Positions 151-44,966 of a stretch of DNA of 44,966 nucleotides are shown one piece after another. Source of the DNA: a virus; the IMG/VR virus record IMGVR_UViG_3300045988_027444, one strand, 5' to 3'. How positions within the stretch are numbered: the stretch's first letter is position 1; each line of letters starts with the position of its first letter. The position numbers and the translations under genes are program-made. The notes under the pieces were generated by a model. The model was not told where the DNA came from and made no database searches. It worked only from the letters and a program-made list of their open reading frames with translations.

Positions 151-274
151 ACTAGAAAGAACAGCCCTCAATGAAATACTGAGGACTGTGACATATATAG
201 CTGAGAAGTTGGATGAACTAGATTCTAAGATTTCTTCGAACGATTCACAAGTTCTTGAGCATCAAGAAAATTGA
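143..274 (+). CDS. Possible 43-aa small ORF (MNELERTALNEILRTV...)
   Basis: ATG 143 overlaps the cro stop (ATGAATGA). It runs convergently into the 3' end of the minus-strand gene. No clear RBS. Confidence 0.2.
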   Translation: MNELERTALNEILRTVTYIAEKLDELDSKISSNDSQVLEHQEN

Positions 275-908
275 GTTTCATTTCCATGTAGTGAATAACT
301 CCATGAAGGTAGTTCTTTAGGTCTGTAAAGTCTTTGTCGGGGTTGTTTCTGTAGTAATGACCTTCGTCATTGCCAATATAAGCAGATGCAAGAGCGAATG
401 TTTTAAGGTCTTCGTCCTTAATATATTTTTCGATAACTTGTTTTAGCGACATTTTAATGATTTTACCTTCATCATCAGGGTTGGTAACGATGGAGAAATC
501 TTTAACGAAAAACTCAAGTGCCTTTCGATATCCTATACCTGCAATGTGGTCTAATTGTTCATACTCGGCTTTCAGTGCTTGGACATAGATTTGCTTGCCG
601 ATTGGAGAAACCATCTCTACATCGTCAGATATAGGTATATCGCTTGGAAGATTAGGAATTACTTTGATGTGTTTAATTTCGTATGTTCTGTCGTATGAGT
701 TGATCACATAAGCTATAAATTCCTCCGTCCAGAAGTGCTTACAACCTAAGCATCTAAATGTTAATACCAAATGTGTTTCATCTTCTGTGAGGGGAAAATA
801 AGAAGAATTTACTAGGTCTGGATTGGTTGGTTTTTTACAAATCGGACAGCTGTCTTCAACGGTTACAGGTCTAGAAACAGAAGAGCTTATTTTTGCTTGA
901 AATATCAT
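225..908 (-). CDS. Zn-ribbon plus DUF4145-like protein (227 aa), antisense accessory gene
   Basis: ATG at 908 sits 4 nt after a GGAGAAG RBS (913-919 rc). The tracked start at 947 has no RBS. Motifs are CPICKK...CLGCKH, then IGYRKALEFFVKD...YIGNDEGHY, which resembles the DUF4145 signature. Confidence 0.75.
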   Translation of the reverse strand: MIFQAKISSSVSRPVTVEDSCPICKKPTNPDLVNSSYFPLTEDETHLVLTFRCLGCKHFWTEEFIAYVINSYDRTYEIKHIKVIPNLPSDIPISDDVEMVSPIGKQIYVQALKAEYEQLDHIAGIGYRKALEFFVKDFSIVTNPDDEGKIIKMSLKQVIEKYIKDEDLKTFALASAYIGNDEGHYYRNNPDKDFTDLKNYLHGVIHYMEMKLNFLDAQELVNRSKKS

Positions 909-938
909 AATTCTTCTCCAATCGTTTTTATTGTCTCT

Positions 939-946
939 ATTATACA
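939..946 (-). promoter_or_regulatory. Extended -10 promoter (TGTATAAT) for the DUF4145-like gene
   Basis: The reverse complement of attataca at 939-946 is TGTATAAT, about 30 nt upstream of ATG 908. Confidence 0.55.
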
Positions 947-967
947 AAACTTAGAAAGGAAAAGTAA

Positions 968-1210
968 ATGCAAGAAATCACCTACAAACCAGCCGGAGTT
1001 AACGAAACGGCTGAGTGGGGAGACTACGACCACCTCATGCAACGGTGGGAAGGTCTTGGGAAGTCAATGGCGAAGAACCTCATCAGAGAAATGAGGGATA
1101 ACAAAGACTTCCGGGACTACGTATTCAACCCAACACATAAACTGGTTTTCATTAACTATGAAGGCTTTAAGTCCTTCATCGAATGGAAAACTAGAAACAG
1201 ATTCAAATAA
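968..1210 (+). CDS. Hypothetical early protein, 80 aa
   Basis: ORF with an AAAGGAAAAG RBS upstream. No motif recognised. Confidence 0.6.
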   Translation: MQEITYKPAGVNETAEWGDYDHLMQRWEGLGKSMAKNLIREMRDNKDFRDYVFNPTHKLVFINYEGFKSFIEWKTRNRFK

Positions 1211-1397
1211 CACACACTGGCAAGAGATTGCCTAGCACTAATATCCCTAGCCGTAACAGTGAGCTAGTGAGGAAACTGAACGATACCAACTAAGTAAGCA
1301 ACAACGATTTGATATTCATAAGTCTCCTTAAATATATATGAATTAAAAACCTCGCTAGTTCTCTAGTGCGGTTAGGGAATAAGAAAGGAATTTAAAA

Positions 1398-1553
1398 ATG
1401 AAAAAACTACTTAAATGGCTATTTGTAAAAGAGAAACAAGAACCAGAATATTTCTTCGAACCCGTATGGACACCATACGAGGAAAACGAACGCAAATATG
1501 AAGCTCGCCAAAAACGTGAACAAGAGCTTTTGGCAAAATACGGAAACCGATAA
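1398..1553 (+). CDS. Small hypothetical protein, 51 aa (MKKLLKWLFVKEKQEPEYFF...)
   Basis: ATG 1398 lies 8 nt after AAGAAAGGAA. It is below the ORF-track cutoff and was translated by hand. Confidence 0.4.
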   Translation: MKKLLKWLFVKEKQEPEYFFEPVWTPYEENERKYEARQKREQELLAKYGNR

Positions 1554-1562
1554 CATTACCAT

Positions 1563-1713
1563 CTTCAATCCGTAGCCACGGCTCACCGTGGAGTGTAACT
1601 TATACCTTTCCCCAAAAAAATCTTTACTAAATTACTTTTTTCCTAATTTTCCCATTCATAAGTCTAATAAAACATTGAAATACGACACGGTGGGCTATGG
1701 GTGCGGATTGAAG
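1563..1713. repeat. Imperfect 28-nt inverted repeat (1563-1590 / 1686-1713) enclosing a 95-nt AT-rich segment
   Basis: cttcaatccg...caccgtg pairs with cacggtg...cggattgaag. The outer 10 bp and inner 7 bp are perfect, and the middle is mostly paired. Confidence 0.6.
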
Positions 1714-1717
1714 CACT

Positions 1718-1744
1718 AAAAAAAGCACAGGTAAGGGCCTGTGC
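1718..1744 (-). terminator. Hairpin with a T-run on the minus strand (GCACAGG-6-CCTGTGC after A7 on plus)
   Basis: A 7-bp perfect stem at 1725-1744 is preceded by aaaaaaa at 1718-1724. It reads as an intrinsic terminator only on the minus strand. Confidence 0.45.
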
Positions 1745-1773
1745 AGAGAAAATTATACCAAGGAGATTATACC

Positions 1774-3567
1774 ATGAAAACACAAACAATTGCAAAACCA
1801 TCTTTCACTAAATCAAAAGCCTATGGTCTTTGCGGAACACTTGCGCTCGCTACAGCATTGCTTATCGGTGCTGGCCAAATATCAGCGGACGAAACAACAC
1901 AGCCAGTAGTTGACGCTCAACCAGCGGTGTCTAATGTCTATACAGCTGACAACGCTGGAAATGTCACAGTTACACCTAGCGAACCAGCGGCAGAAACACC
2001 AAAAGTGTTGGCACCAGCACCAGTAGAATCTCAACCGATTGCAGAAGCACCAGCAACAGTCGAAACTACTCCAGCGGTTGCTACCGAATCAGCACCATTG
2101 GCAGAAGTAGCTCAACCAGTAGCTGAAACGCCTAAACAGCCTACTGAATTTGTCAAAGAAGACAACGAAATTAAAGTAACTAATCCAGATGTTATCGTTG
2201 ACCAATCAAACGGAACTGGTAAATACAGTGGTTTTACAGTGGAATATAAAGACGTTAAATTCCCAGATAGCATGCCTATCAACGAAGGGGATAAGGTAAC
2301 ATTCAACCTTCCAAAAGAAATCAACTTCCAAACAAACTATGATTTTGATGTCTATAACCCAGAAAAAGCTGTTGTTGGTAAGGCTTCAACTGACCCTAAG
2401 ACACAAACAGTAACAACCGTATTTAACGATTACTTCAAGAACCATCCACTCAATAAACAAATGTCATTGAAGCTCGATGCTAAGTGGACTGACAAGGTTG
2501 AAAGTGGCAAGCCAGTTAACGTTAATTTCAATGGTACAGTGGTTACTGTTAATATTGGCAAAGAACAAGAAATCGGTAAAGATGAATTACTTTCTAAATG
2601 GGGCAGCCAAGACGAGAATGACCCAACTGTTATCAACTGGACTGCTCGTATTAACTACGCTAAGAGAGTGCTCAACTATGTGACTATCATTGATGAAATG
2701 TCAGAGAATCAAAAGTTAGTTGATAACTTCTTTGAAGTAAAGAATATTGAAAGTGTTGATCCGTGGATTGACAAAGGCTCAGCTATGGACTTAGTTAAGT
2801 CTATCAGTAAGTCAGATCGTGGCTTTACTATCAAGATGGATCGCTTGGATCACATGATCTACATCAACTATAAGACTAAGCTTGTTAACGCTGTCAAGGA
2901 CTCAGTTAACCCAACGAACAAAATTGAGTTGAAAGCAGAAACAGATGGAGCTACTTCGTATAGCTATGTACAACTCGTAGGAGGAAAGGGTGATGCGTCT
3001 GGTGAGAACAAACCAGAACCAACTTTTGAGGTGCCAAACGAAGCGCCTAAAGTAGACATTCCAGAATTTGAGGGCGGTATCCCCGGAATCCCAGAGGTGC
3101 GAGAATTACCGGAGTATACTGAGCCAATCGGAACAGTTCCTAATGAAGCCCCAGTACATGATAAGCCAGAGTTCCAAGGTGGTATCCCTGGTATTCCAGA
3201 AGAACGTGAGCTCCCACCATTTGAAGGTGGCACAGTGCCAAACGATGCCCCTGTCCTTGACTTGCCAGAATTGCACATTCCGGAAGAACCAACTAAGCCA
3301 ACACCAGAAAAACCAGTGACACCAAAAGAAGTGCCTAACAAGCCCGCAGACGCTCCTAAAGATAAAGCGGCACAATCTACCACAGTATCGTATAAGCTCG
3401 ATTCCGAGCCAAAAGAGGTGGCAAATACGACGGTTTACGGTGGTGTTCTCCCTAACACTGGTGAGAAAGAGGGCATCATGTCAACTCTTGGTCTAGCAGT
3501 TATCGCTGTTGGTATCGCAGGTTTGACATTGAGCTTCAAGAAATATAACGAAAGAGGAGAGAATTAA
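1774..3567 (+). CDS. LPXTG cell-wall-anchored surface adhesin, Cna/MSCRAMM-like collagen-binding-type domain plus Pro-rich repeats
   Basis: ATG 1774 follows an AAGGAG RBS. Signal peptide ends ...GAGQISA/DE. GDKVTFNLP...VTTVFNDYF resembles a Cna-type fold. Three PNEAP..PEF.GGIPGIPE repeats. LPNTG (3448-3462), then a TM helix and KKYNERGEN tail. Confidence 0.85.
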   Translation: MKTQTIAKPSFTKSKAYGLCGTLALATALLIGAGQISADETTQPVVDAQPAVSNVYTADNAGNVTVTPSEPAAETPKVLAPAPVESQPIAEAPATVETTPAVATESAPLAEVAQPVAETPKQPTEFVKEDNEIKVTNPDVIVDQSNGTGKYSGFTVEYKDVKFPDSMPINEGDKVTFNLPKEINFQTNYDFDVYNPEKAVVGKASTDPKTQTVTTVFNDYFKNHPLNKQMSLKLDAKWTDKVESGKPVNVNFNGTVVTVNIGKEQEIGKDELLSKWGSQDENDPTVINWTARINYAKRVLNYVTIIDEMSENQKLVDNFFEVKNIESVDPWIDKGSAMDLVKSISKSDRGFTIKMDRLDHMIYINYKTKLVNAVKDSVNPTNKIELKAETDGATSYSYVQLVGGKGDASGENKPEPTFEVPNEAPKVDIPEFEGGIPGIPEVRELPEYTEPIGTVPNEAPVHDKPEFQGGIPGIPEERELPPFEGGTVPNDAPVLDLPELHIPEEPTKPTPEKPVTPKEVPNKPADAPKDKAAQSTTVSYKLDSEPKEVANTTVYGGVLPNTGEKEGIMSTLGLAVIAVGIAGLTLSFKKYNERGEN

Positions 3568-3782
3568 TGGAAGTAAAAAAAGAACCTAAAACCTCTTATC
3601 ATCACGTTAGATGTAGCAAAGAGGCTTATGACCAAATCGCTGAAATCGCTAATGAGTGTGACTTGACTATTGCTAATGTAGCTACTTCATTACTACTCTA
3701 TGCGTTGAATCACACCGAAATCGTCAGTGTTGAAAAAGTAGTGACTGAGAGCCGCTTAGTCATCGGAGGTGGGAACGAATGA
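3567..3782 (+). CDS. Small protein, possibly ribbon-helix-helix DNA binding
   Basis: TAATG overlap with the adhesin stop. The beta-alpha-alpha pattern (HHVRCSKEAYDQIAEIANE...) is suggestive only. Confidence 0.5.
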   Translation: MEVKKEPKTSYHHVRCSKEAYDQIAEIANECDLTIANVATSLLLYALNHTEIVSVEKVVTESRLVIGGGNE

Positions 3783-5092
3783 GTATCGCAATAAATAAGC
3801 TAGAGATTGAAAACGTCAAACGGATCAAAGCAGTTAAGGTTGAGCCATCACCTACCGGTCTAACGGTAATTGGTGGAAATAACAACCAAGGCAAAACTAG
3901 CGTGCTAGATTCTATCGCTTGGGCTTTGGGTGGAAATCGTTTTAAACCTAGCAAGGCAACCCGTGAGGGGTCTGTTATCCCTCCATCGCTCAAGATCACT
4001 ATGTCAAATGGCTTGGTCGTTGAACGCAAAGGTAAGAATAGTTCGCTTAAGGTTATTGATCCAGAGGGTAATAAAGGTGGACAACAACTGCTTGACAGTT
4101 TTGTTGAAGAGTTGGCTATTAATTTGCCTAAGTTTATGGAAAGTACAGCCAAAGAAAAAGCTGATACGCTCTTACAAATCATTGGGGTTGGGCCGCAGTT
4201 GGCTGAGCTTGAAATCAAAGAAAAGCAATTGTATGACCAACGTCATGCCATTGGTGTTATCGCTGACCAAAAAGAGAAGTTCGCCAAAGAACAGACTTAC
4301 TATCCAGATGCGCCAAAAGAACTTATCTCTATCGCTGACTTGATTGCTGAACAGCAGGAAGTTTTAGCCAGGAATGGGGAAAATGCTCGCAAACGCCAAA
4401 ACGCTAGTCAAATCCAAGCGCAATATGATGCCAAAGTGGCAGAAGTCAACCGTCTGTCACAGCAATTGGTAGAGGCTCAGGAAATTTTACAAAAGCTCGC
4501 TGATGATTTGGCTATCGCTCATAAAGATGCGACTGACTTGGTAGATGAATCCACTGAGGAAATCGAAAGCAATATTGCTAACATCGAACAGATTAACCTT
4601 AAAGTCCGTGCTAACTTGGACAAGGACAAAGCGGAAGAGGATGCCAAGGCTCAACGTGAGCAGTATAACAAGTTGTCTGTTCAAATCGAAGATGTTCGTA
4701 AAAGTAAACGTGACTTATTAACCAATGCAAACTTGCCTCTGGAAGGCTTGATTGTAGATGATGGGAAGTTACTTTACCTTGGTCAAGAATGGGATAACAT
4801 GTCGGGATCTCAACAACTCATGGTAGCGACCGCAATTGTCCGAAAACTAAAACCAGATTGTGGCTTCGTTTTAATCGACAAGCTCGAACAAATGGACCAA
4901 ATCACATTGGACCAATTTGGAAAATGGCTTGAGGATGAAGGTCTCCAAGCTATTGCAACGAGAGTATCGACTGGTGATGAATGCTCAATTATCATCGAAG
5001 ATGGTTATAGCATCGACAACAAAACGCATCAGCCAACAGTTGAAGCCAAATCCGAAACACCACAAACGCCATCATGGCAAGGAGGATTTTAA
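3779..5092 (+). CDS. SMC/RecF-like AAA ATPase with coiled-coil insert
   Basis: N-terminal Walker A GGNNNQGKTS. Long coiled-coil middle. C-terminal signature/Walker B region (SGSQQL...VLIDKLE). Confidence 0.75.
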   Translation: MSIAINKLEIENVKRIKAVKVEPSPTGLTVIGGNNNQGKTSVLDSIAWALGGNRFKPSKATREGSVIPPSLKITMSNGLVVERKGKNSSLKVIDPEGNKGGQQLLDSFVEELAINLPKFMESTAKEKADTLLQIIGVGPQLAELEIKEKQLYDQRHAIGVIADQKEKFAKEQTYYPDAPKELISIADLIAEQQEVLARNGENARKRQNASQIQAQYDAKVAEVNRLSQQLVEAQEILQKLADDLAIAHKDATDLVDESTEEIESNIANIEQINLKVRANLDKDKAEEDAKAQREQYNKLSVQIEDVRKSKRDLLTNANLPLEGLIVDDGKLLYLGQEWDNMSGSQQLMVATAIVRKLKPDCGFVLIDKLEQMDQITLDQFGKWLEDEGLQAIATRVSTGDECSIIIEDGYSIDNKTHQPTVEAKSETPQTPSWQGGF

Positions 5093-6954: not shown

Positions 6955-8537
6955 TGCAACTTAGACCTTACCAAGAAGAGGCAAGGGCTAAGGTACAGCA
7001 AGAGTGGAAGGAGGGCAGGAAGCGCACGCTACTTGTCCTACCCACTGGCTGTGGTAAGACCATTGTTTTTTCAAAAATTATAGAAGACCGTGTCAAGATG
7101 GGAGAACGTGTTCTTGTTCTCGCTCATCGTTCAGAACTTTTGGAACAAGCCAGTGATAAATTAATGACGGCTACAGGATTGGGAACGGCGTTGGAGAAAG
7201 CTGAAAACACTTCAATCGGCTCATGGTTCCGTGTGGTGGTAGGCTCTGTCCAGACCATGCAGCGTGAGAAACGTCTCAGTCAGTTCCCGTCAAACCACTT
7301 TGACACTATTGTCATCGACGAAGCCCATCATGCTATCTCAGACGGTTATCAACGTGTGCTGGAACACTTCAAAGATGCCAACGTCTTAGGTGTTACAGCC
7401 ACTCCCGACCGTGGCGATATGCGAAATTTAGGTAGCTACTTTGACAGTTTGGCTTATGAATACCCACTAGTAGATGCTATTAAATCAGGGTATTTATCGA
7501 AAATCACAGCTATTACAATCCCTCTTGAACTTGACTTATCAACAGTCAGTCAACAAGCCGGAGATTTCAAGGCTAGTGAAATCGGAACAGCCCTAGACCC
7601 ATACCTTGACCAAATCGCTGACGAAATGGTTAAGCAGTGCAAGGATAGAAAGACAGTGGTATTTCTGCCCTTAGTTAAAACCTCACAGAAATTTCGTGAC
7701 ATCTTAAATGCAAAAGGGTTTAAGGCGGCTGAGGTCAACGGTGAATCCAAGGATCGTGCTGAGGTTTTGGAGGATTTTGACAAAGACAAATACAACGTCC
7801 TCTGTAACTCGATGCTATTAACTGAGGGGTGGGACTGTCCAACAGTAGACTGCGTGGTTGTGTTGAGACCCACAAAGGTTCGAGCGCTCTATAGTCAAAT
7901 GGTGGGACGTGGTACACGTCTTGCACCAGGAAAGGAAAATCTATTACTACTCGATTTCCTATGGCACACTGAGCGCCATGAACTTTGCAGACCAGCGCAC
8001 TTAATTGCTAGCAGTCCAGAAGTTGCCAAAAAGATGACTGAAAATATGGCTGAAGATACAGAAGTTGAGTTCAGTCTGTTAGAAGCTGAAGAACAAGCTA
8101 GCAAGGATGTCGTTGCTGAACGTGAAGAAGCACTTGCAAAGCAGTTGGCTGAACAGCGCCGTAAAAAGCGTAAGTTAGTGGACCCACTTCAATTTGAAAT
8201 GTCTATCCAAGCTGAAGACTTAGCGGACTACGTCCCATCATTCGGTTGGGAAATGGCCCCGCCATCCGACAAACAACTTAAAGCTCTCGAGAAGTTCGGT
8301 ATTTATACTGAGGAAATTGGAAATGCAGGGAAGGCTGGTAAGCTCTTGGATCGTTTGAATAAGCGTAAAGAAAGTGGCTTGACAACGCCTAAACAAATCC
8401 GATTGCTCGAAGGTCGTGGTTTCCGGAATGTCGGCATGTGGAAATTTGAAGATGCTAGTAATTTGATCAATCGAATTGCTGCAAGCGGCTGGAGAATGCC
8501 AAAAGGAATCATTCCAGCTACATACCAGCCAGAATAA
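6954..8537 (+). CDS. Superfamily-2 DEAD/DEAH-box DNA helicase
   Basis: Walker A LPTGCGKT, DEAH box VIDEAHH, motif VI QMVGRGTR. Confidence 0.85.
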   Translation: MQLRPYQEEARAKVQQEWKEGRKRTLLVLPTGCGKTIVFSKIIEDRVKMGERVLVLAHRSELLEQASDKLMTATGLGTALEKAENTSIGSWFRVVVGSVQTMQREKRLSQFPSNHFDTIVIDEAHHAISDGYQRVLEHFKDANVLGVTATPDRGDMRNLGSYFDSLAYEYPLVDAIKSGYLSKITAITIPLELDLSTVSQQAGDFKASEIGTALDPYLDQIADEMVKQCKDRKTVVFLPLVKTSQKFRDILNAKGFKAAEVNGESKDRAEVLEDFDKDKYNVLCNSMLLTEGWDCPTVDCVVVLRPTKVRALYSQMVGRGTRLAPGKENLLLLDFLWHTERHELCRPAHLIASSPEVAKKMTENMAEDTEVEFSLLEAEEQASKDVVAEREEALAKQLAEQRRKKRKLVDPLQFEMSIQAEDLADYVPSFGWEMAPPSDKQLKALEKFGIYTEEIGNAGKAGKLLDRLNKRKESGLTTPKQIRLLEGRGFRNVGMWKFEDASNLINRIAASGWRMPKGIIPATYQPE

Positions 8538-8547
8538 AGGAGATTAA

Positions 8548-10803
8548 ATGTCAGAAGGTACTTTTGATTTAATCCCACTCTTAGATTATATTGACCCTTC
8601 TACATTGTCTTATCAAGAGTGGGTAAACGTAGGAATGGCCCTAAAACAAGAAGGTTATACGGCAATGGATTGGGACGCTTGGTCTCAATCAGATGGCCGT
8701 TATAAAAAGGGAGAATGCTTCACTAAATGGGATACTTTTCACAATAATGGCTCTGGTGCTGTGACTGGAGCTACCATCACTCAGATGGCTAAAAACAATG
8801 GTTGGGAGCCTATGAACAAGTCAGGCGAAAGCTACGAACTTAGCTGGGATTCAACTATTGATCGTGATTATCAAATCGTTGATAAAAATTGGGTCGAATC
8901 AAAGGAAATCCGAGAACCAATCAATTGGCATCCAGTCCAAGATCTTGTCAAATACATCGAAACATTGTTTGAAATGACAGACCTCGTTGGCTATGTCACA
9001 TCAACTTATCCGATTGAAACAGAGAATGGGCCAATCTATAAGCCAACTCAAGGCAATTACGACAGGACTGCCGGAGAGCTTATTAAAGAACTTCAGAGTA
9101 ATGGCGATGATATCGGTGCAGTTTTTGGAGACTACAAGGAAGAAGCTGGCGCCTGGATTCGTTTCAACCCGTTGGATGGAAAGGGTGTCAAGAACGATAA
9201 CGTCACTGATTTCAGATACGCTCTAGTAGAATCGGACAGCATGGAGCTCGGGAAACAATACGCTCTATTTAAAGAGTTAGAGCTTCCTATTGCTACACTA
9301 GTACACTCTGGGCACAAGTCGTTGCATGCAGTGGTACGAGTGGATGCTAGAGACTATCAAGAATATCGGAAACGTGTCGATTACATTTATCAGATTTGTA
9401 AGAAAAATGGACTTGATATTGATACCCAAAACCGTAATCCAAGCCGACTCTCTCGCATGCCTGGAGTAATCCGAAATGGGCATAAGCAGTTCTTGATTGA
9501 TACGAATCTTGGGAAAGCTAACTACGAAGAATGGTATCAATGGGTAGAAGATTTAAACGACGACCTTCCGGATCCTGAAACACTAGCAGACGAGTGGGAC
9601 CACCTTCCAGATTTAGCCCCAGAGCTTATCCATGGGGTATTGCGTCAAGGTCATAAGATGCTGATTGCAGGGCCGTCAAAAGCTGGTAAGTCGTTTGCTC
9701 TCATCGAGTTATCAATCGCTATTGCAGAGGGGCGAAAGTGGCTCGGCTGGCAGTGCGAACAAGGTAAGGTTCTCTATGTCAATCTAGAGTTGGATAGACC
9801 GTCAGCTCTTCACCGTTTTAAAGATGTTTATGCTGCTATGGGCATGCCACCTAATAGTGTCGCCAATATCGACATCTGGAACCTTCGGGGAAAGACCGTG
9901 CCAATGGATAAGTTAGCACCTAAACTCATTCGACGGTCCCTTAAGAAGAATTACCAAGCAGTTATTATTGACCCTATCTATAAGGTTCTGACAGGGGATG
10001 AAAACTCTGCAGACCAAATGGCCCATTTTACCAATCAATTCGATAAGGTAGCTACTGAGCTGGGTTGTGCCGTTATCTACTGCCACCATCACTCAAAAGG
10101 TTCTCAAGGTGGCAAGAAATCCATGGACCGTGCTAGTGGTTCAGGAGTGTTCGCTCGTGACCCTGACGCTCTGGTTGATTTAGTAGAGTTAGAGCTTAAC
10201 GACGATCTTGTTAAAGCTCGGACTGAAAAAGCAACAGCTAAGATTTACCAAAGAGCCTTGCAAGAACAGGCTAACGATTATTACCAACAGGATGTCAGTC
10301 TTGACGATTTGGAAAGTCGTTATCAAATGCAACAGCATTTTGACAAGGCTATCCCAGACATTCTAAAACGCAAGCCCTATTTGGATGAAGTTCAGTCCAC
10401 AGTCCACGCTATCGAGATTGCGACAGCGTGGCGTGTTGAAGGGACCCTCCGAGAGTTCGCCAAATTTGCCCCTGTGAATATGTGGTTCAGCTACCCAGTC
10501 CATGAAGTGGATACTACTGGTGTGCTGGCTGATATCCAACTGGAAGATAACGCCCCAGCTTGGAAAAAGAACCTAAATAAAGGTCCAGAATCGAAGAAGA
10601 AGACAGCAGAAAAAAATAAAGAAAAGCTAGTTAACGCTATTCAAGCGTTAGACGATGGAATGGATCCAGTTACAATTGACGATGTCGTGGAATATTTTTC
10701 AACAGAAGATAAACCTGTTAGCGAAAAAACTATCAGAAGATGGATCAAAAACTCAGAAATTTTTGAGGTGAAAAATGGAAAAATTCACCAAAAAAATACC
10801 TGA
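8548..10803 (+). CDS. Primase (PriCT-like N-terminus, primase-polymerase core) fused to a RecA-like/DnaB-like ATPase
   Basis: Zinc-less N-terminal PriCT-like region, central catalytic region, Walker A GPSKAGKS and Walker B AVIIDPI. Confidence 0.75.
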   Translation: MSEGTFDLIPLLDYIDPSTLSYQEWVNVGMALKQEGYTAMDWDAWSQSDGRYKKGECFTKWDTFHNNGSGAVTGATITQMAKNNGWEPMNKSGESYELSWDSTIDRDYQIVDKNWVESKEIREPINWHPVQDLVKYIETLFEMTDLVGYVTSTYPIETENGPIYKPTQGNYDRTAGELIKELQSNGDDIGAVFGDYKEEAGAWIRFNPLDGKGVKNDNVTDFRYALVESDSMELGKQYALFKELELPIATLVHSGHKSLHAVVRVDARDYQEYRKRVDYIYQICKKNGLDIDTQNRNPSRLSRMPGVIRNGHKQFLIDTNLGKANYEEWYQWVEDLNDDLPDPETLADEWDHLPDLAPELIHGVLRQGHKMLIAGPSKAGKSFALIELSIAIAEGRKWLGWQCEQGKVLYVNLELDRPSALHRFKDVYAAMGMPPNSVANIDIWNLRGKTVPMDKLAPKLIRRSLKKNYQAVIIDPIYKVLTGDENSADQMAHFTNQFDKVATELGCAVIYCHHHSKGSQGGKKSMDRASGSGVFARDPDALVDLVELELNDDLVKARTEKATAKIYQRALQEQANDYYQQDVSLDDLESRYQMQQHFDKAIPDILKRKPYLDEVQSTVHAIEIATAWRVEGTLREFAKFAPVNMWFSYPVHEVDTTGVLADIQLEDNAPAWKKNLNKGPESKKKTAEKNKEKLVNAIQALDDGMDPVTIDDVVEYFSTEDKPVSEKTIRRWIKNSEIFEVKNGKIHQKNT

Positions 10804-11467: not shown

Positions 11468-11855
11468 ATTTTTCGTTCCGATGAAAAAAATCCCAACTAC
11501 AACGCATCAGCAAAAGAAAGTCACTGTCAGAAATGGTAAACCGCATTTCTATGAGCCTCAAAGTTTGAAGGAAGCCAGAAGTCTATTCACTGAGTTGTTA
11601 AGCGCATACACTCCAAAAGAGCAGATAGACGGACCTATACGCCTCACAGTGAAATGGCTATTTCCTAAAATCAAAAAAGCGACTCATGGCCAGTACAAGA
11701 CTACTAAACCAGATACGGATAATTTACAAAAATTACTTAAGGACTGCATGACGAATCTTGGCTATTGGCATGATGATGCACAAGTGGCTAGTGAGATTGC
11801 TGAAAAGTTCTGGTCGGATACTGTGGGCATCTATGTCAAGGTGGAACAGCTATGA
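11460..11855 (+). CDS. rusA: RusA-family Holliday junction resolvase
   Basis: Start at MIEFFVPM after GGTGAGGTGG. Contains the KPDTDNLQKLLKDCM...WHDDAQV motif typical of RusA. Confidence 0.8.
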   Translation: MIEFFVPMKKIPTTTHQQKKVTVRNGKPHFYEPQSLKEARSLFTELLSAYTPKEQIDGPIRLTVKWLFPKIKKATHGQYKTTKPDTDNLQKLLKDCMTNLGYWHDDAQVASEIAEKFWSDTVGIYVKVEQL

Positions 11856-12088
11856 ACTATATCGAATTTTTTGAAAAAGAAGTCCCGGACTGGATGAGGG
11901 AAAGCAATCGCATGATGCAATTGCTTGGTTTTAACACCCCTGCATACTGGAATTGGGTAATTGCCTCTATCGATAATGTTTGCGAAAAATATAACAACGA
12001 CATTCTGGTTAAAAATCAATTCCATATCATCTGGGATTTTCTAGATGAGAAGGCCAGGGAGGTTCAAACCATAGATGCAACAGATTGA
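11852..12088 (+). CDS. Hypothetical protein, 78 aa
   Basis: ATGA overlap with the rusA stop. Confidence 0.6.
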   Translation: MNYIEFFEKEVPDWMRESNRMMQLLGFNTPAYWNWVIASIDNVCEKYNNDILVKNQFHIIWDFLDEKAREVQTIDATD

Positions 12089-38615: not shown

Positions 38616-39335
38616 ATGAGTAAAATTGAATCAAGTATCGCACGTATGTATCACTTACAATCAATCCCAGTACATTACGACATGGGCGACCGTTACGGAA
38701 ATGATGCTGACGGAGATGGACGCATTGAATTTGACTGCTCATCAGCGGTAAGCTATGCACTTGAAATCAGCTTAAATAACAACACAGAGTCACTTCAACA
38801 AGCACTACCAGCAATTGGCTATGCGAAGGTGTTTGACGCTGTAGATGGCACGTTTGATGGCCAACGTGGAGATGTCGTTATTTGGGCACCTCGTGACGGC
38901 TCAAGCTCTCTCGGTGCATTTGGGCACGTACTTATCATGACTAGCGATAGCACAGCTATTCACTGCAACTATGGCATGGACGGTGTGACTGAAAACGACT
39001 ATAATTATATCTGGGATCTAAACGGTCGTCCTCGTGAAATTGTCTTCCGTGAGAGTGGAACACCTCTCCCTGCACCAGCCCAAAGCGAATTTGAGCGTGA
39101 ATTAGATGTTAATACCCGCTTAGAGAAGTCAGACAAGCCTTATTATGAAGGCACTCTTACCACTGACTACTACGTTGAAGCCGGTCCTCGCATCGATAGC
39201 CAAGACAAGGAATTCCTCCCAGCAGGCACACGAGTCCGTGTTTACGAGAAACTAAACGGCTGGTCTCGAATCAACCACCCAGACAGTGCGCAATGGGTTG
39301 AAGATCAGTACTTGGACGATTGCACGGAAATGTAA
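38616..39335 (+). CDS. Endolysin: Amidase_5/NlpC-P60-like cysteine peptidoglycan hydrolase plus a C-terminal SH3b-like wall-binding domain
   Basis: Catalytic Cys context FDCSSAV and His context FGHVLIM. The C-terminal GTRVRVYEKLNGWSRI is SH3-like. Confidence 0.8.
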   Translation: MSKIESSIARMYHLQSIPVHYDMGDRYGNDADGDGRIEFDCSSAVSYALEISLNNNTESLQQALPAIGYAKVFDAVDGTFDGQRGDVVIWAPRDGSSSLGAFGHVLIMTSDSTAIHCNYGMDGVTENDYNYIWDLNGRPREIVFRESGTPLPAPAQSEFERELDVNTRLEKSDKPYYEGTLTTDYYVEAGPRIDSQDKEFLPAGTRVRVYEKLNGWSRINHPDSAQWVEDQYLDDCTEM

Positions 39336-40540: not shown

Positions 40541-40597
40541 TAAAGAAAAAGCCTATCATATCAAGGTTTAAACCTTGGTAGATAGGTCTTTTTTTAT
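40541..40597. terminator. Bidirectional terminator downstream of int
   Basis: cctatc...gatagg encloses the perfect palindrome caaggtttaaaccttg. An A-run lies on one side and T7 on the other. Confidence 0.7.
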
Positions 40598-41772
40598 TCT
40601 AAGGGGCAAGAAAGGGGCAAGTTATCAATGATTTCAACTACCTTATTCTTCATTTTGTTGGTGACGTGAGTATAAATCTTCATCGTTGTATCACTGTCAT
40701 CATGCCCAACTCTATCCATGATAGCCTTTAACGGGACGCCATTCTCAGCTAGATAACTGACCAGCGTATGCCTGAAGATATGTGATGATATTGGTTTGTT
40801 AATTGGCTTATCTAGTCGCTTGTTAGCTGCTTGAATAGAATTGTTAAATGAGTTTCGTTGAAGTGGTACGCCCTTGTCAGTCACAAAAATATAATCCCTA
40901 TCCATGGTCACCCAATCGTCTGATAGCGACCTGTTTAGATCCCGAATCTGTATAGCTTCATCTAGTAATTCAATTTCACGCTTGGTTAGTTTATTGCTAC
41001 GATAGCCTGCTGGGGTCTTAGGTGGTTCCTTTTTTGCTCTCTTGTAGCCCTGGACGCTATCCAGGGTGCCAAAAATATCAAGGTATCCGTCCTCTTTTCT
41101 GTAATTGCACGTTTCAAGGGCTACCGCTTCACCGATTCGAGCACCGCTGACAAAGAGAAACTCTGCAAGGATGGCATTTCTATAAGTGCGTTTTTGCTTT
41201 CGTAATTCTGCAAGTAGCGGAAGTAGTTCAGTGTCTATCTCTAGAAACTTATTTCTTATCTTGTCGTAATCTTCCATCGTTTGCTGTTTCTTGGGAAGTT
41301 TTGCTTGCCTTGCAGGATTGCTAGGAATGTAACCAACGGTGCAAGCGTAATCGAAGGTTAGATTCAATATAGATTTAACACGCTCAAGGATTGAACGTGG
41401 AACATCGGCATCGTTGATAAAGCGTTGGATATAGTGTGTATCAATGTTTGCTATTTTGACATCTACAGCGAAATTCTCTTCGACATACCTGACATTGCTG
41501 GTCATGGAACTAATCGAAGTCCTTCGAATGCCTTTCTTGTGAAATTCCCACCACTCGCTCAACACATCGTTAAATGATGCGTCGGTAGTGTTTAAGCCAG
41601 CCATCTTTTCAGCTATCTTATCATCCAGTAAGCGTTGAGCCTCTTTCTTTGCTCGATTTGAGCCACTGTTGAGCGTAACAGATACCCGTCTCCATTTCTC
41701 AGTGTAAGTGTCCTTGTATCTTTCAAAATATTTATATTTTCCATTCGGTAATTCTTCTACCCACATTGTCAT
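40594..41772 (-). CDS. int: Tyrosine recombinase / phage integrase
   Basis: The C-terminal catalytic set is ..GARIGE.., HIFRHT and GHDDSDTTMKIYTHV. The RBS is AGGAGA. Confidence 0.9.
   Translation of the reverse strand: MTMWVEELPNGKYKYFERYKDTYTEKWRRVSVTLNSGSNRAKKEAQRLLDDKIAEKMAGLNTTDASFNDVLSEWWEFHKKGIRRTSISSMTSNVRYVEENFAVDVKIANIDTHYIQRFINDADVPRSILERVKSILNLTFDYACTVGYIPSNPARQAKLPKKQQTMEDYDKIRNKFLEIDTELLPLLAELRKQKRTYRNAILAEFLFVSGARIGEAVALETCNYRKEDGYLDIFGTLDSVQGYKRAKKEPPKTPAGYRSNKLTKREIELLDEAIQIRDLNRSLSDDWVTMDRDYIFVTDKGVPLQRNSFNNSIQAANKRLDKPINKPISSHIFRHTLVSYLAENGVPLKAIMDRVGHDDSDTTMKIYTHVTNKMKNKVVEIIDNLPLSCPLE
40601..40620 (+). repeat. AAGGGGCAA direct repeat pair inside the last codons of int
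   Basis: aaggggcaagaaaggggcaa, which encodes LPLSCPL on the minus strand. Confidence 0.45.
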
Positions 41773-42536: not shown

Positions 42537-42905
42537 TTAAATCTCCTTTAGTTTTAGATATTCATTTTTTACAAAAGTCTCATCACAAATAGTGGTGAGA
42601 TTATATTTTTCCATAAAGTGGACGTAGTTGAAGTCGTCCAGGGATTCGTTTTCGAGCAATCCACGGATCATGTCTCTATTAGCTTGAGCCTCATACTTTT
42701 CTCGCAGACGCTCATAGTGTTTAGGATCGTGTTCTAGGTGGCCTAATTCGTGCAGTAGGACCTTTAAACGTCTTTCGACGGGTAAATCCCTATTGATGTA
42801 AACCACACGGTTAACAGGGTCTAGAAACCCATCTCGTGGCCACTGGCTAGAGTCGAACTCACAAAGAGACACGTTGAACTGCTCAAGTAATTCTTTTTCA
42901 GGCAT
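42537..42905 (-). CDS. ImmA/IrrE-family zinc metallopeptidase
   Basis: HEXXH motif LLHELGHLEH. Size and location in the lysogeny module. Confidence 0.85.
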   Translation of the reverse strand: MPEKELLEQFNVSLCEFDSSQWPRDGFLDPVNRVVYINRDLPVERRLKVLLHELGHLEHDPKHYERLREKYEAQANRDMIRGLLENESLDDFNYVHFMEKYNLTTICDETFVKNEYLKLKEI

Positions 42906-44180: not shown

Positions 44181-44561
44181 CTATTCTCCCTTACTACTCA
44201 TATAACCTGCAATAATGCCACGGATAGCCCGCTTGTCATCCTCAGTCAGCGGTTTACCGTCGAACATCATGGCGTTGTCGATGATTTCATCGATGTCATG
44301 GGTATTAGGTTGTGGGTCGTCGGTCATAGGGGCGTCGTATCCCATGAGCCACGCTTCAGACACTCCCAACGTTCTAGCAAGTAACACTAACTTTTCTTGG
44401 TCTGGTGTTGATTTCCCATTGATATACTGAGACAAAGCGCTCTTTCCGAGTTTTACACCTAGTTCTTTTTGATGAGCTTTTGAAAGAGAAATTATATCAA
44501 CTTGTTTTAAGTTCCGTTCGCTCATAATTTGCTGCAAACGTGAAGCAGTAGTATTTTTCAT
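44181..44561 (-). CDS. CI-like XRE-family HTH repressor
   Basis: HTH LKQVDIISLS...SALSQYINGKSTP, divergent from the cro-like gene. Confidence 0.85.
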   Translation of the reverse strand: MKNTTASRLQQIMSERNLKQVDIISLSKAHQKELGVKLGKSALSQYINGKSTPDQEKLVLLARTLGVSEAWLMGYDAPMTDDPQPNTHDIDEIIDNAMMFDGKPLTEDDKRAIRGIIAGYMSSKGE

Positions 44562-44657: not shown

Positions 44658-44686
44658 TTGACAAAATAAAAGAGAAGGATTAAAAT
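44658..44686 (+). promoter_or_regulatory. Early lytic promoter (TTGACA-17-TAAAAT) for the cro-like gene
   Basis: TTGACA at 44658-44663, a 17-nt spacer and TAAAAT at 44681-44686. Confidence 0.7.
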
Positions 44687-44730: not shown

Positions 44731-44966
44731 ATGAGATTTAACTATGCTAAATTAAAAGGTCGCATCAAAGAAAAATATGAGACTCAAGGAGATTTTGCGA
44801 AAGCTATTGGCTTAACTCCTACAACATTTTCGTTTAAAATCAACGGTAAAGCAAAGTGGAAACAAGATGAAATTGTAAAAGCTGCTGAACTATTAGAAAT
44901 CTCACAAGATGAGATTGCCGAATATTTTTTTGCCTATAAAGTTCAAGAACTTGAACCAAAAAAAAT
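44731..44966 (+). CDS. 5' part of the Cro-like XRE-family HTH protein (continues at 1-150)
   Basis: ATG 44731 follows AAAGGAGAA. HTH QGDFAKAIGLTPTTFSFKINGK. The joined protein is 88 aa. Confidence 0.8.
   Translation, partial: MRFNYAKLKGRIKEKYETQGDFAKAIGLTPTTFSFKINGKAKWKQDEIVKAAELLEISQDEIAEYFFAYKVQELEPKK
44848..44966. repeat. Terminal direct repeat, right copy (identical to 1-119)
   Basis: Same 119 nt as the window start. This is an assembly-style circular overlap. Confidence 0.95.

Follow-up and report, generated by a model that had tools for sequence, protein, structure and literature searches.

IMG/VR virus record IMGVR_UViG_3300045988_027444, a stretch of 44,966 nucleotides that is here called the window, carries upstream of its replication genes a gene for an LPXTG surface protein that resembles Cna and other adhesins of the MSCRAMM family. 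The gene product is probably a sortase-anchored MSCRAMM adhesin that is made when the early operon of the phage fires, and that raises the stickiness of infected or induced cells. As a conserved accessory cassette, the gene belongs to temperate siphophages that infect Streptococcus salivarius; prophages of other oral streptococci and of Gemella have related versions of it. Coordinates of the gene, of its parts and of neighbouring features are collected in Table 1.

A preliminary description of this DNA, made without database searches, had proposed a complete sortase substrate with a Cna/MSCRAMM-like fold, and both proposals are borne out. The N-terminus reads as a Sec signal peptide, with a K-rich n-region, the hydrophobic stretch LCGTLALATALLIGAG and a predicted boundary between ISA and DE, and these features are kept in an alignment of 40 homologs. 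The signal peptide resembles the TIGR03726 model (YSIRK-like; "cross-wall-targeting lipoprotein signal"), with a score of 16.9 bits that is below the cut-off of 20.85. At the C-terminal end, the LPNTG motif (aa 559-563) is followed by a hydrophobic segment of 25 amino acids and the basic tail KKYNERGEN. The sorting signal scores 17.1 with TIGR01167, above the cut-off of 15.9, and 16.4 with the Pfam model Gram_pos_anchor (PF00746), below the cut-off of 20. An observation in its own right concerns residues 11-20 of the signal peptide (1804-1833), which contain the family-conserved motif K-x-K-A-[YF]-G-L-C-G (here KSKAYGLCG) with an invariant Cys20. In a protein with an LPXTG anchor, a cysteine at such a place in the signal peptide is puzzling.

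The stalk between the A region and the anchor contains copies of a VPN(E/D)AP..PE(F/L) motif, which start at 3031, 3136 and 3235, with spacings of 105 and 99 nt. The repeats described at the outset as three copies of about 37 amino acids are therefore present, but with a period of 33-35 amino acids, and only two copies are full (VPN(E/D)AP..PEFxGGIPGIPE in the fuller form), while the third is truncated. The NCBIfam equivalog model NF043031 ("SIALI-17") scores 52.4 bits over three stretches, against a cut-off of 30, and close homologs carry the NCBI name "SIALI-17 repeat-containing surface protein". Tandem Repeats Finder detected no array at the DNA level in the LPXTG gene, because the protein repeats are too diverged; they were picked up by a seed-based finder only.

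The A region is covered by matches to the Pfam domains Big_8 (aa 161-241, 2254-2496, E=4e-13) and Collagen_bind (aa 271-376, 2584-2901, E=3e-12), both above the curated cut-offs, and it contains the GDKVTFNLP and TVFNDYF motifs that had first pointed to Cna. A search of the PDB with the window protein as a single sequence returned nothing at E<=0.01, and Cna and the Sdr proteins were reached only via the family profile and the predicted structure. With the profile, for which 35 diverse relatives had been aligned, the match to S. aureus Cna N1N2 (2f68) had E=4e-12 and extended over both subdomains and 264 profile positions; further PDB matches were Bbp, SdrE, ClfB, RspB and Cnm. In the profile alignment, TVTTVFNDYF (aa 212-221), the form in which the TYTFTDYVD-like motif of the first MSCRAMM subdomain is present, is placed opposite "ITFNDKVEK" of Cna, and F217, N218, Y220 and F221 are invariant across the family. 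K275, D307 and N382, each invariant or at least 90% conserved in the family, align with K, D and N residues of Cna, which we take to be the isopeptide triad K176/D209/N293 of its N2 domain.

The AlphaFold2 model of residues 121-430, calculated from an alignment of 37 sequences with 39-99% identity, is all-beta, with a mean pLDDT of 77.9; residues 281-310 in the numbering of the model have pLDDT values below 50. When the model was compared with the PDB by Foldseek, the best 40 or so matches were all MSCRAMM A regions (E 1e-15 to 1e-12), including SdrE, SdrC, Bbp, Cnm, Cna, RspB, UafA, ClfA/B, SdrG, FnBPA and Ace. The TM-scores are only 0.4-0.5, as would be expected for two subdomains that hinge differently. 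In the BFVD library of viral structures, there was only one strong likeness, to a "clumping factor" of a metagenomic siphovirus. According to the model, the A region is a genuine two-subdomain MSCRAMM-type adhesin module on a proline-rich stalk. The conserved segment VQLVGGKGDASGENKPEPTFE (aa 399-419), which is predicted with low confidence, is a candidate latch or linker.

Comparison with characterised adhesins brings out what is shared and what is particular to the phage protein. With Cna of S. aureus (2f68, 2f6a) and Cnm of S. mutans (8jl8), it has in common two tandem IgG-like subdomains in the A region, the xTFNDxx motif, the conserved Lys, Asp and Asn positions, and the LPXTG anchor. It differs from them in sequence (about 15% identity), in being phage-borne rather than chromosomal, and in its stalk, where SIALI-17 and proline-rich repeats take the place of Cna_B; the Pfam scan of the window protein gave no Cna_B or FctA match at E<=0.01. 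In the Foldseek comparison, the predicted A region comes closest to the staphylococcal MSCRAMMs of the Clf-Sdr group (E 2e-15 to 1e-13), namely SdrE, SdrC, Bbp, ClfA/B and SdrG, and in the profile search it is the first subdomain of the window protein that matches their N2 domain. Unlike the Clf-Sdr proteins, the phage protein has no SD repeats; the identity is 12-16%, and at TM-scores of 0.4-0.5 the inter-domain orientation is not reproduced.

Relatives of the protein are numerous and largely associated with phages. The protein search returned at least 8000 of them, and many of the best 120, which are 77-100% identical, lie on contigs of 38-45 kb; in IMG/VR, there are 328 matching stretches. 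Homologs in GenBank phage records come from prophages of S. salivarius, S. mitis (Javan311) and S. parasanguinis (Javan371), with more distant ones in Listeria phage records and in a record named Campylobacter phage CJLB-5. A search that started from a 43%-identical relative brought up a second large group, on phage-sized contigs and in a prophage of Gemella sanguinis. Among the species representatives of GTDB, an alignment of 10 sequences used as the query identified 25 loci in S. salivarius, S. gingivalis, several S. parasanguinis, S. sanguinis, S. oralis and other streptococci, and at least 20 of the 25 are flanked by phage-like open reading frames (ORFs) on both sides.

The closest described counterparts are Ssal_phage00024 of phage YMC-2011 (YP_006561239.1), gp23 of SA-TP2 and the "sialidase" genes of Javan534, Javan535 and Javan539, which belong to the same family and have the same slot and architecture. 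The window differs from these phages in the allele of the A domain and also in the downstream replication module. The A domain of the window protein shares only 56% of its residues with the alleles of YMC-2011 and Javan536, and 77-79% with those of Javan535 and SA-TP2. In the 40 closest homologs, there is hardly any change in the A region, and variation is found in the N-terminal linker and in the number of SIALI-17 repeats. Pairwise dN/dS values for the A region are 0.05-0.1, with dS up to saturation, which argues for long-term purifying selection on a working protein, and not for recent capture.

Some of the homologs deserve separate mention. The Javan535 homolog (locus L002, 4744-6465), like those of Javan534 and Javan539, is annotated as "sialidase", and the Javan371 homolog as "WapA". 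The Pfam scan found no sialidase domain in the window protein, and the "sialidase" label is a misannotation, with the name of the SIALI-17 repeat as the likely source; the Javan prophage records are corrected here in this respect. In the record of Campylobacter phage CJLB-5 (MW057932.1; locus L012, 4923-6353), a 30%-identical homolog is located after an excisionase gene and before replication genes, a slot of the same kind, and its start matches P0151, whose LPKTG sorting signal is of the Gram-positive type. As Campylobacter would not be expected to be the host of a phage with a sortase substrate, the host given in the record is suspected to be wrong. The prophage of G. sanguinis JAPWBV010000003.1 (locus L093, 8001-9320) encodes a homolog of 439 amino acids with Big_8 and Collagen_bind domains, at the end of the replication region and two genes before the terminase; it has hundreds of close relatives on contigs of 35-45 kb.

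As had been described, the LPXTG gene has the genetic switch on one side and the replication module on the other; it is co-oriented with the early genes. In S. salivarius phages, the slot is always 3' of an ORF of the phrog_1022 family and a conserved leader, and 5' of replication or recombination genes. The same slot is occupied in YMC-2011, SA-TP2, Javan534, Javan535 and Javan539, in the complete S. salivarius chromosome LR800290, and in many metagenomic phages, so that a placement which seemed unusual, and is so by comparison with classical morons, turns out to be the rule for this family. What follows downstream is of at least four types: an SMC-like ATPase, an AAA_24 protein and a helicase in the window and in Javan535; Gam, Sak4 and a helicase in YMC-2011; a replisome organiser, DnaC and RecT in SA-TP2 and in locus L006; and ERF, DUF1351 and a single-strand binding protein (SSB) in LR800290. 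DNA homology between the window and YMC-2011 covers 1216-3568. In other phage lineages, the homolog occupies different places within the early or middle region, but it is co-oriented in every case, closely packed with its neighbours and devoid of the leader. Some of these homologs directly follow an ORF for a helicase, a methylase or a RusA-like protein. It lies between two helicase genes in Javan311, after the replication initiator gene in Javan371, after the excisionase gene in CJLB-5, and shortly before the terminase gene in Gemella.

The signals around the gene point to expression as a part of the early operon. A strong Shine-Dalgarno sequence, AAGGAG, is located 8 nt 5' of the ATG at 1774. 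At the other end, the reported overlap between the stop codon and the next ATG (TAATG, 3565-3569) is real, and the LPXTG gene is predicted from it to be translationally coupled to the replication genes. Scans for consensus sites revealed no promoter of the sigma-70 type on the sense strand within window positions 950-1773, and no consistently placed one in 51 leaders. No terminator-like site was found on the sense strand from the candidate pR promoter to the LPXTG gene, nor in the 600 nt beyond the gene. In view of the absence of an own promoter and terminator and of the TAATG overlap, the simplest reading is expression from pR together with the early lytic genes. It is most likely, judging by these signals, that the LPXTG gene is co-transcribed with the early lytic genes from pR, and that it is not a classical lysogenic-conversion moron. 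As far as consensus promoters go, the gene is not an autonomous unit with its own promoter and terminator near the att site or the lysis genes. It does, however, share with morons the property of being present or absent among otherwise collinear phages. The case in point is locus L121 (IMGVR_UViG_3300045988_068386, reverse strand, about 7080-7571), where the leader and hairpin are followed directly by an ORF of 106 codons instead of the LPXTG gene. This ORF is a homolog of YMC-2011 orf25, which in phages of the YMC-2011 and LR800290 types follows the LPXTG gene, and the variant thus identifies the adhesin gene as a dispensable cassette. Such variants are rare: the LPXTG gene follows about 95 of about 96 leaders that were scored in a motif scan of IMG/VR.

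The preliminary description had proposed a lysogenic-conversion factor, or else a means of decorating lysing cells, and the sequence does not suggest the former. For lysogenic conversion, the prophage would have to express the gene from a non-consensus promoter of the gene itself, located in the 220-nt upstream region, and the product would alter colonisation by the lysogen. We regard this as rather unlikely. A non-coding region of 220 nt is indeed present 5' of the gene, with an AT-rich and G-poor centre that is variable between phages, and the existence of L121 indicates that the phage can dispense with the gene. Moreover, the strong conservation of the A domain would fit a ligand that does not co-evolve with the phages, such as a human or salivary molecule. 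There is also a precedent in staphylococci, since SasX/SesI is an LPXTG surface protein encoded on SPbeta-like prophages of Staphylococcus epidermidis and of S. aureus ST239, and serves as a colonisation factor that is anchored by sortase. SasX belongs to the cargo of a large prophage of the SPbeta type and is not known to be part of an early or replication operon. The sasX gene is named among the genes of mobile elements (PMC7913919). Against a role in lysogenic conversion, the scans of the leaders and the window offered no consistent sense-strand promoter of the sigma-70 type, and with no terminator downstream and the TAATG overlap, constitutive transcription would enter the replication genes. 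Homologs in the other phage lineages also do without an upstream intergenic region. Finally, the region 5' of the gene is under constraint to form an RNA structure on the sense strand, as described below, which implies that transcription enters it from upstream.

The unexpected location would have a trivial explanation if a chromosomal adhesin gene of the host had been misjoined to phage DNA during assembly or binning, and a chimera at 1554-1773 or at 3567 had been considered from the start. Only the a priori oddity of the location speaks for such an artefact, and we consider it to be practically out of the question. The assembly is circular, with a terminal repeat of 119 bp, and both junctions recur in independent assemblies. 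The upstream junction (1554-1773) is spanned in 45 other loci, and a protein identical to that of the window (P0001) is encoded on 7 contigs. The junction between the LPXTG gene and the following 71-aa ORF is identical in at least three separate ENA assemblies from different samples; two of the three contigs continue through the full SMC-like and AAA_24 genes, and the third ends inside the SMC-like gene. The same arrangement is found in records of cultured isolates (YMC-2011, SA-TP2, the Javan prophages and chromosome LR800290), and the GC content of the LPXTG gene is continuous with that of its flanks.

The leader in front of the LPXTG gene is predicted to fold into a long helix of 27 bp with small bulges, which encloses an apical region of about 85 nt, poor in G and different from phage to phage. 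For the window sequence, RNAfold gives -64.3 kcal/mol, with z=-5.6 against shuffled sequences. The long helix is followed by a small GC-rich hairpin. In an alignment of 51 distinct leaders, 99.4% of the cells of the long helix and the small hairpin together form standard pairs, and 15 of the 34 pairs have changes on both sides (148 cells). When the partners were slid by 1-3 columns as a control, only 22-48% of the cells paired. The covariation gives strong support to the long helix. The small hairpin alone has two covarying pairs (UA to CG, 26/25, and GC to AU, 31/20), and is preceded by a run of A residues that has 6-8 members across the leaders, six of them invariant. According to the tally over the individual pairs, G.U pairs make up about one seventh of the cells. 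As such a pair would be an A.C mismatch on the other strand, the constraint seems to act on the sense RNA. Rfam gave no match to the leader or the small hairpin at the gathering threshold, and at a relaxed threshold only chance-level miRNA-precursor hairpins (E 0.3-7).

Several other roles of the leader were considered and set aside. An invertible promoter switch of the cwpV or fimS type is disfavoured by the G.U-tolerant arms, which point to a structure of the sense RNA. In addition, the apical sequences fall into two main types that, by eye, are not reverse complements of each other, and the terminator-like hairpin lies outside the repeat. An intrinsic terminator or attenuator on the sense strand would require a U-tract, which follows neither of the hairpins, and no consistent candidate for a promoter inside the leader was seen among the 51 sequences. 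The association of the element with four different replication modules makes a replication origin unlikely.

Read on the minus strand, the small hairpin is a canonical intrinsic terminator, with a 7-bp stem, a 6-nt loop and a U7 tract. The invariant TATACCATG at the start codon corresponds on the same strand to an extended -10 element, TGGTATAAT, and locus L006 has the same minus-strand promoter-like match at this place. It is conceivable from these signals that the extended -10 element and the terminator specify a cis-antisense RNA of about 40-55 nt. Such an RNA would resemble OOP of phage lambda, an antisense RNA that is likewise located between regulatory and replication genes. In L006, which is another S. 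salivarius prophage, a second combination of A6 and a GC hairpin is found directly after the LPXTG stop codon (11826-11866). On the minus strand, this second hairpin resembles a terminator, with T6 after a stem of 11 bp, and the adhesin gene is there bracketed by two terminators in reverse orientation.

These elements can be combined into a more specific proposal, which we put forward only tentatively. The LPXTG proteins may represent a branch of the MSCRAMMs specific to a phage lineage, which acts as an early-lytic adhesin rather than as lysogenic cargo and is gated by a hitherto undescribed module, composed of the leader (about 150 nt) and an OOP-like antisense RNA that would run from the extended -10 element, which overlaps the start codon, to the minus-strand terminator (1744-1718). 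The purpose could possibly be to re-surface the doomed cell, either to tether it to neighbours or tissue, or to control superinfection and adsorption to debris.

In the more general reading, of an adhesin made with the early operon, transcription would start from pR upon induction or infection, and the leader could serve as a processing or stability element of the RNase III type, its long stem being a plausible substrate for RNase III. Alternatively, control could be exerted by a short antisense RNA that ends at the minus-strand terminator; by either route, it would be post-transcriptional. The signal peptide would export the LPXTG protein, and host sortase A would cut at LPNTG and link the protein to peptidoglycan. 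The SIALI-17 and P/K-rich segments would then span the wall, and the two IgG-like subdomains would be displayed to clamp a conserved, probably proteinaceous ligand by a mechanism of the collagen hug or dock-lock-latch type. Infected or induced cells might in this way become stickier to host surfaces or to their neighbours, and lysis would free the progeny within dense host populations. Basal expression in lysogens, if there is any, would add a colonisation benefit. A comparable case is that of PblA and PblB of the Streptococcus mitis phage SM1, which are also proteins of an oral streptococcal phage that reach the bacterial surface and adhere to host components. PblA and PblB are virion tail proteins that are encoded by late genes, lack an LPXTG motif, are released by lysis and re-bind to the choline of the wall.

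Several points weigh against an early-operon adhesin. A wall protein made only in the lytic phase has little time to act, and a role in superinfection or debris adsorption fits the data about as well. The identity to characterised adhesins in the Foldseek alignments is about 12-16%, and at about 15% the ligand cannot be inferred, so that "collagen" is here the name of a domain and not a prediction; the inter-domain geometry of the A-region model is uncertain as well (pTM 0.52). The promoter scans cover the sigma-70 consensus, and a weak or non-canonical promoter could reside in the G-poor apical part of the leader. Expression in lysogens is possible as far as sequence can tell, and the literature searched contained no expression data for any member of the family. 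Lastly, the L121 leader, which lacks an LPXTG gene, may mean that the leader regulates the whole downstream early operon and not the adhesin gene in particular.

The time constraint draws attention to surface exclusion or anti-adsorption, for which Llp of phage T5, the Ltp lipoproteins and PrgA, an LPXTG protein that enterococcal plasmids encode for surface exclusion, provide analogues. An early wall protein would in this case mask the receptor or capture virions, and so block superinfection and the loss of progeny on debris. The position in the early lytic operon and the coupling across several unrelated phage lineages would be in line with such a role, as would the almost universal retention of the gene behind its leader and the overwhelmingly prophage-borne, rather than chromosomal, distribution of the family, which suggests a phage-centred function. 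Nevertheless, we think that exclusion is distinctly improbable. The scans of the LPXTG protein against PADLOC and PHROG gave no match, and it has no likeness to any defence model or family in them. The A domain is nearly invariant across phages with differing modules, which is unexpected if its target were a fast-evolving receptor-binding protein, and all relatives in fold are adhesins for host ligands. The superinfection-exclusion genes known from phages of S. thermophilus and S. salivarius are placed elsewhere, between integrase and repressor, and encode lipoproteins (PMC3952083).

The window as a whole supports the assignment to a temperate phage. Its first 119 bp are repeated exactly and in direct orientation at the end (1-119 = 44848-44966), and the identical ends show that this phage genome from a metagenome is closed to a circle of about 44.85 kb. 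By megablast of all 44,966 bases, it groups with temperate Streptococcus phages, and the longest matches are to the S. salivarius prophages Javan534, Javan535 and Javan539, YMC-2011, Javan536 and SA-TP2. The phage is temperate and its host is S. salivarius, a bacterium of the mouth; the gene map fits a siphophage. The candidate pR is located about 1.9 kb upstream of the start of the LPXTG gene on the circular genome. Rightward from it, and over the circular junction, the order is a cro-like DUF739 ORF (called in the contigs that carry the identical LPXTG protein), a 43-aa ORF, an oppositely oriented gene of 240 codons, the excisionase-like ORF, the 51-aa ORF, 220 nt of non-coding DNA, the LPXTG gene, the 71-aa ORF, and the genes for the SMC-like ATPase, the AAA_24 protein, the helicase and the primase. 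The stop codon of the 71-aa ORF overlaps in turn with the start of the SMC-like ATPase gene (3779-5092).

Table 1. Features of the LPXTG gene, its upstream region and other parts of the window
Feature	Position	Strand	Remarks
LPXTG Cna/MSCRAMM-like protein CDS, 597 aa	1774-3567	+	stop TAA 3565-3567; SIALI-17 repeat-containing surface protein family
Signal peptide, aa 1-38	1774-1887	+	read from sequence; columns invariant in homologs
Pro/Ala/Thr/Val-rich N-terminal linker, aa 39-120	1888-2133	+	from composition; indels, variable length among homologs
A region, aa 121-405, two IgG-like subdomains	2134-2988	+	
Conserved segment, aa 399-419	2968-3030	+	invariant columns; after last strand of second subdomain
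SIALI-17 proline-rich repeats	3031-3291	+	copy number differs among homologs
Pro/Lys-rich segment, aa 507-558, presumed wall-spanning	3292-3447	+	from composition; variable in alignment
Sorting signal	3448-3564	+	LPNTG 3448-3462, hydrophobic helix 3463-3537, tail KKYNERGEN 3538-3564
Structured RNA leader	1564-1712	+	5' arm 1564-1595 pairs with 3' arm 1681-1712
A7 run and GC-rich hairpin	1717-1744		hairpin 1725-1744, loop UAAGGG; within 5' UTR
Shine-Dalgarno region	1745-1773	+	AAGGAG 1760-1765, flanked by repeated ATTATACC
Excisionase-like ORF	968-1210		phrog_904
51-aa ORF	1398-1553	+	phrog_1022; travels with leader and LPXTG gene
71-aa ORF	3567-3782	+	phrog_5118; ATG overlaps LPXTG stop (TAATG)
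Primase/helicase	8548-10803	+	
Endolysin	38616-39335	+	
Integrase	40594-41772	-	
Metalloprotease-like	42537-42905	-	
cI-like repressor gene	44181-44561	-	
Candidate pL	44617-44589	-	faces candidate pR, adjoins cI-like repressor gene
Candidate early rightward promoter pR	44658-44686	+	TTGACA-17-TAAAAT, 11/12

The 240-aa gene (225-947, minus strand, phrog_1305) is antisense within the early rightward region. Its relatives, with about 87% DNA identity, are annotated as DUF4145 or "DNA binding protein" in phages of pneumococci and S. suis. It has a promoter-like site (968-939) and a terminator-like site (189-161) of its own, both on the minus strand, and is for this reason closer to a classical moron than the adhesin gene is.

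The gene family as such is already annotated in GenBank and in NCBIfam, and in S. salivarius phages since the annotation of YMC-2011. In the literature searched, we found no functional study of a SIALI-17 phage protein, and no account of the breadth and phage-specificity of the family, of its consistent embedding in early or middle operons, or of the leader RNA. In the human mouth and gut, S. salivarius is one of the dominant early colonisers, and its temperate phages are very common in metagenomes. If most of these phages install a conserved, wall-anchored adhesin on the surface of their host when they switch on, then phage activity would directly shape adhesion, aggregation and biofilm structure in the oral microbiome. 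In that case, this adhesin family would be spread mainly by phages rather than by the chromosome. The tight placement in the operon and the covariation-supported leader offer a concrete and testable handle on when and why a phage would decorate the surface of its host.

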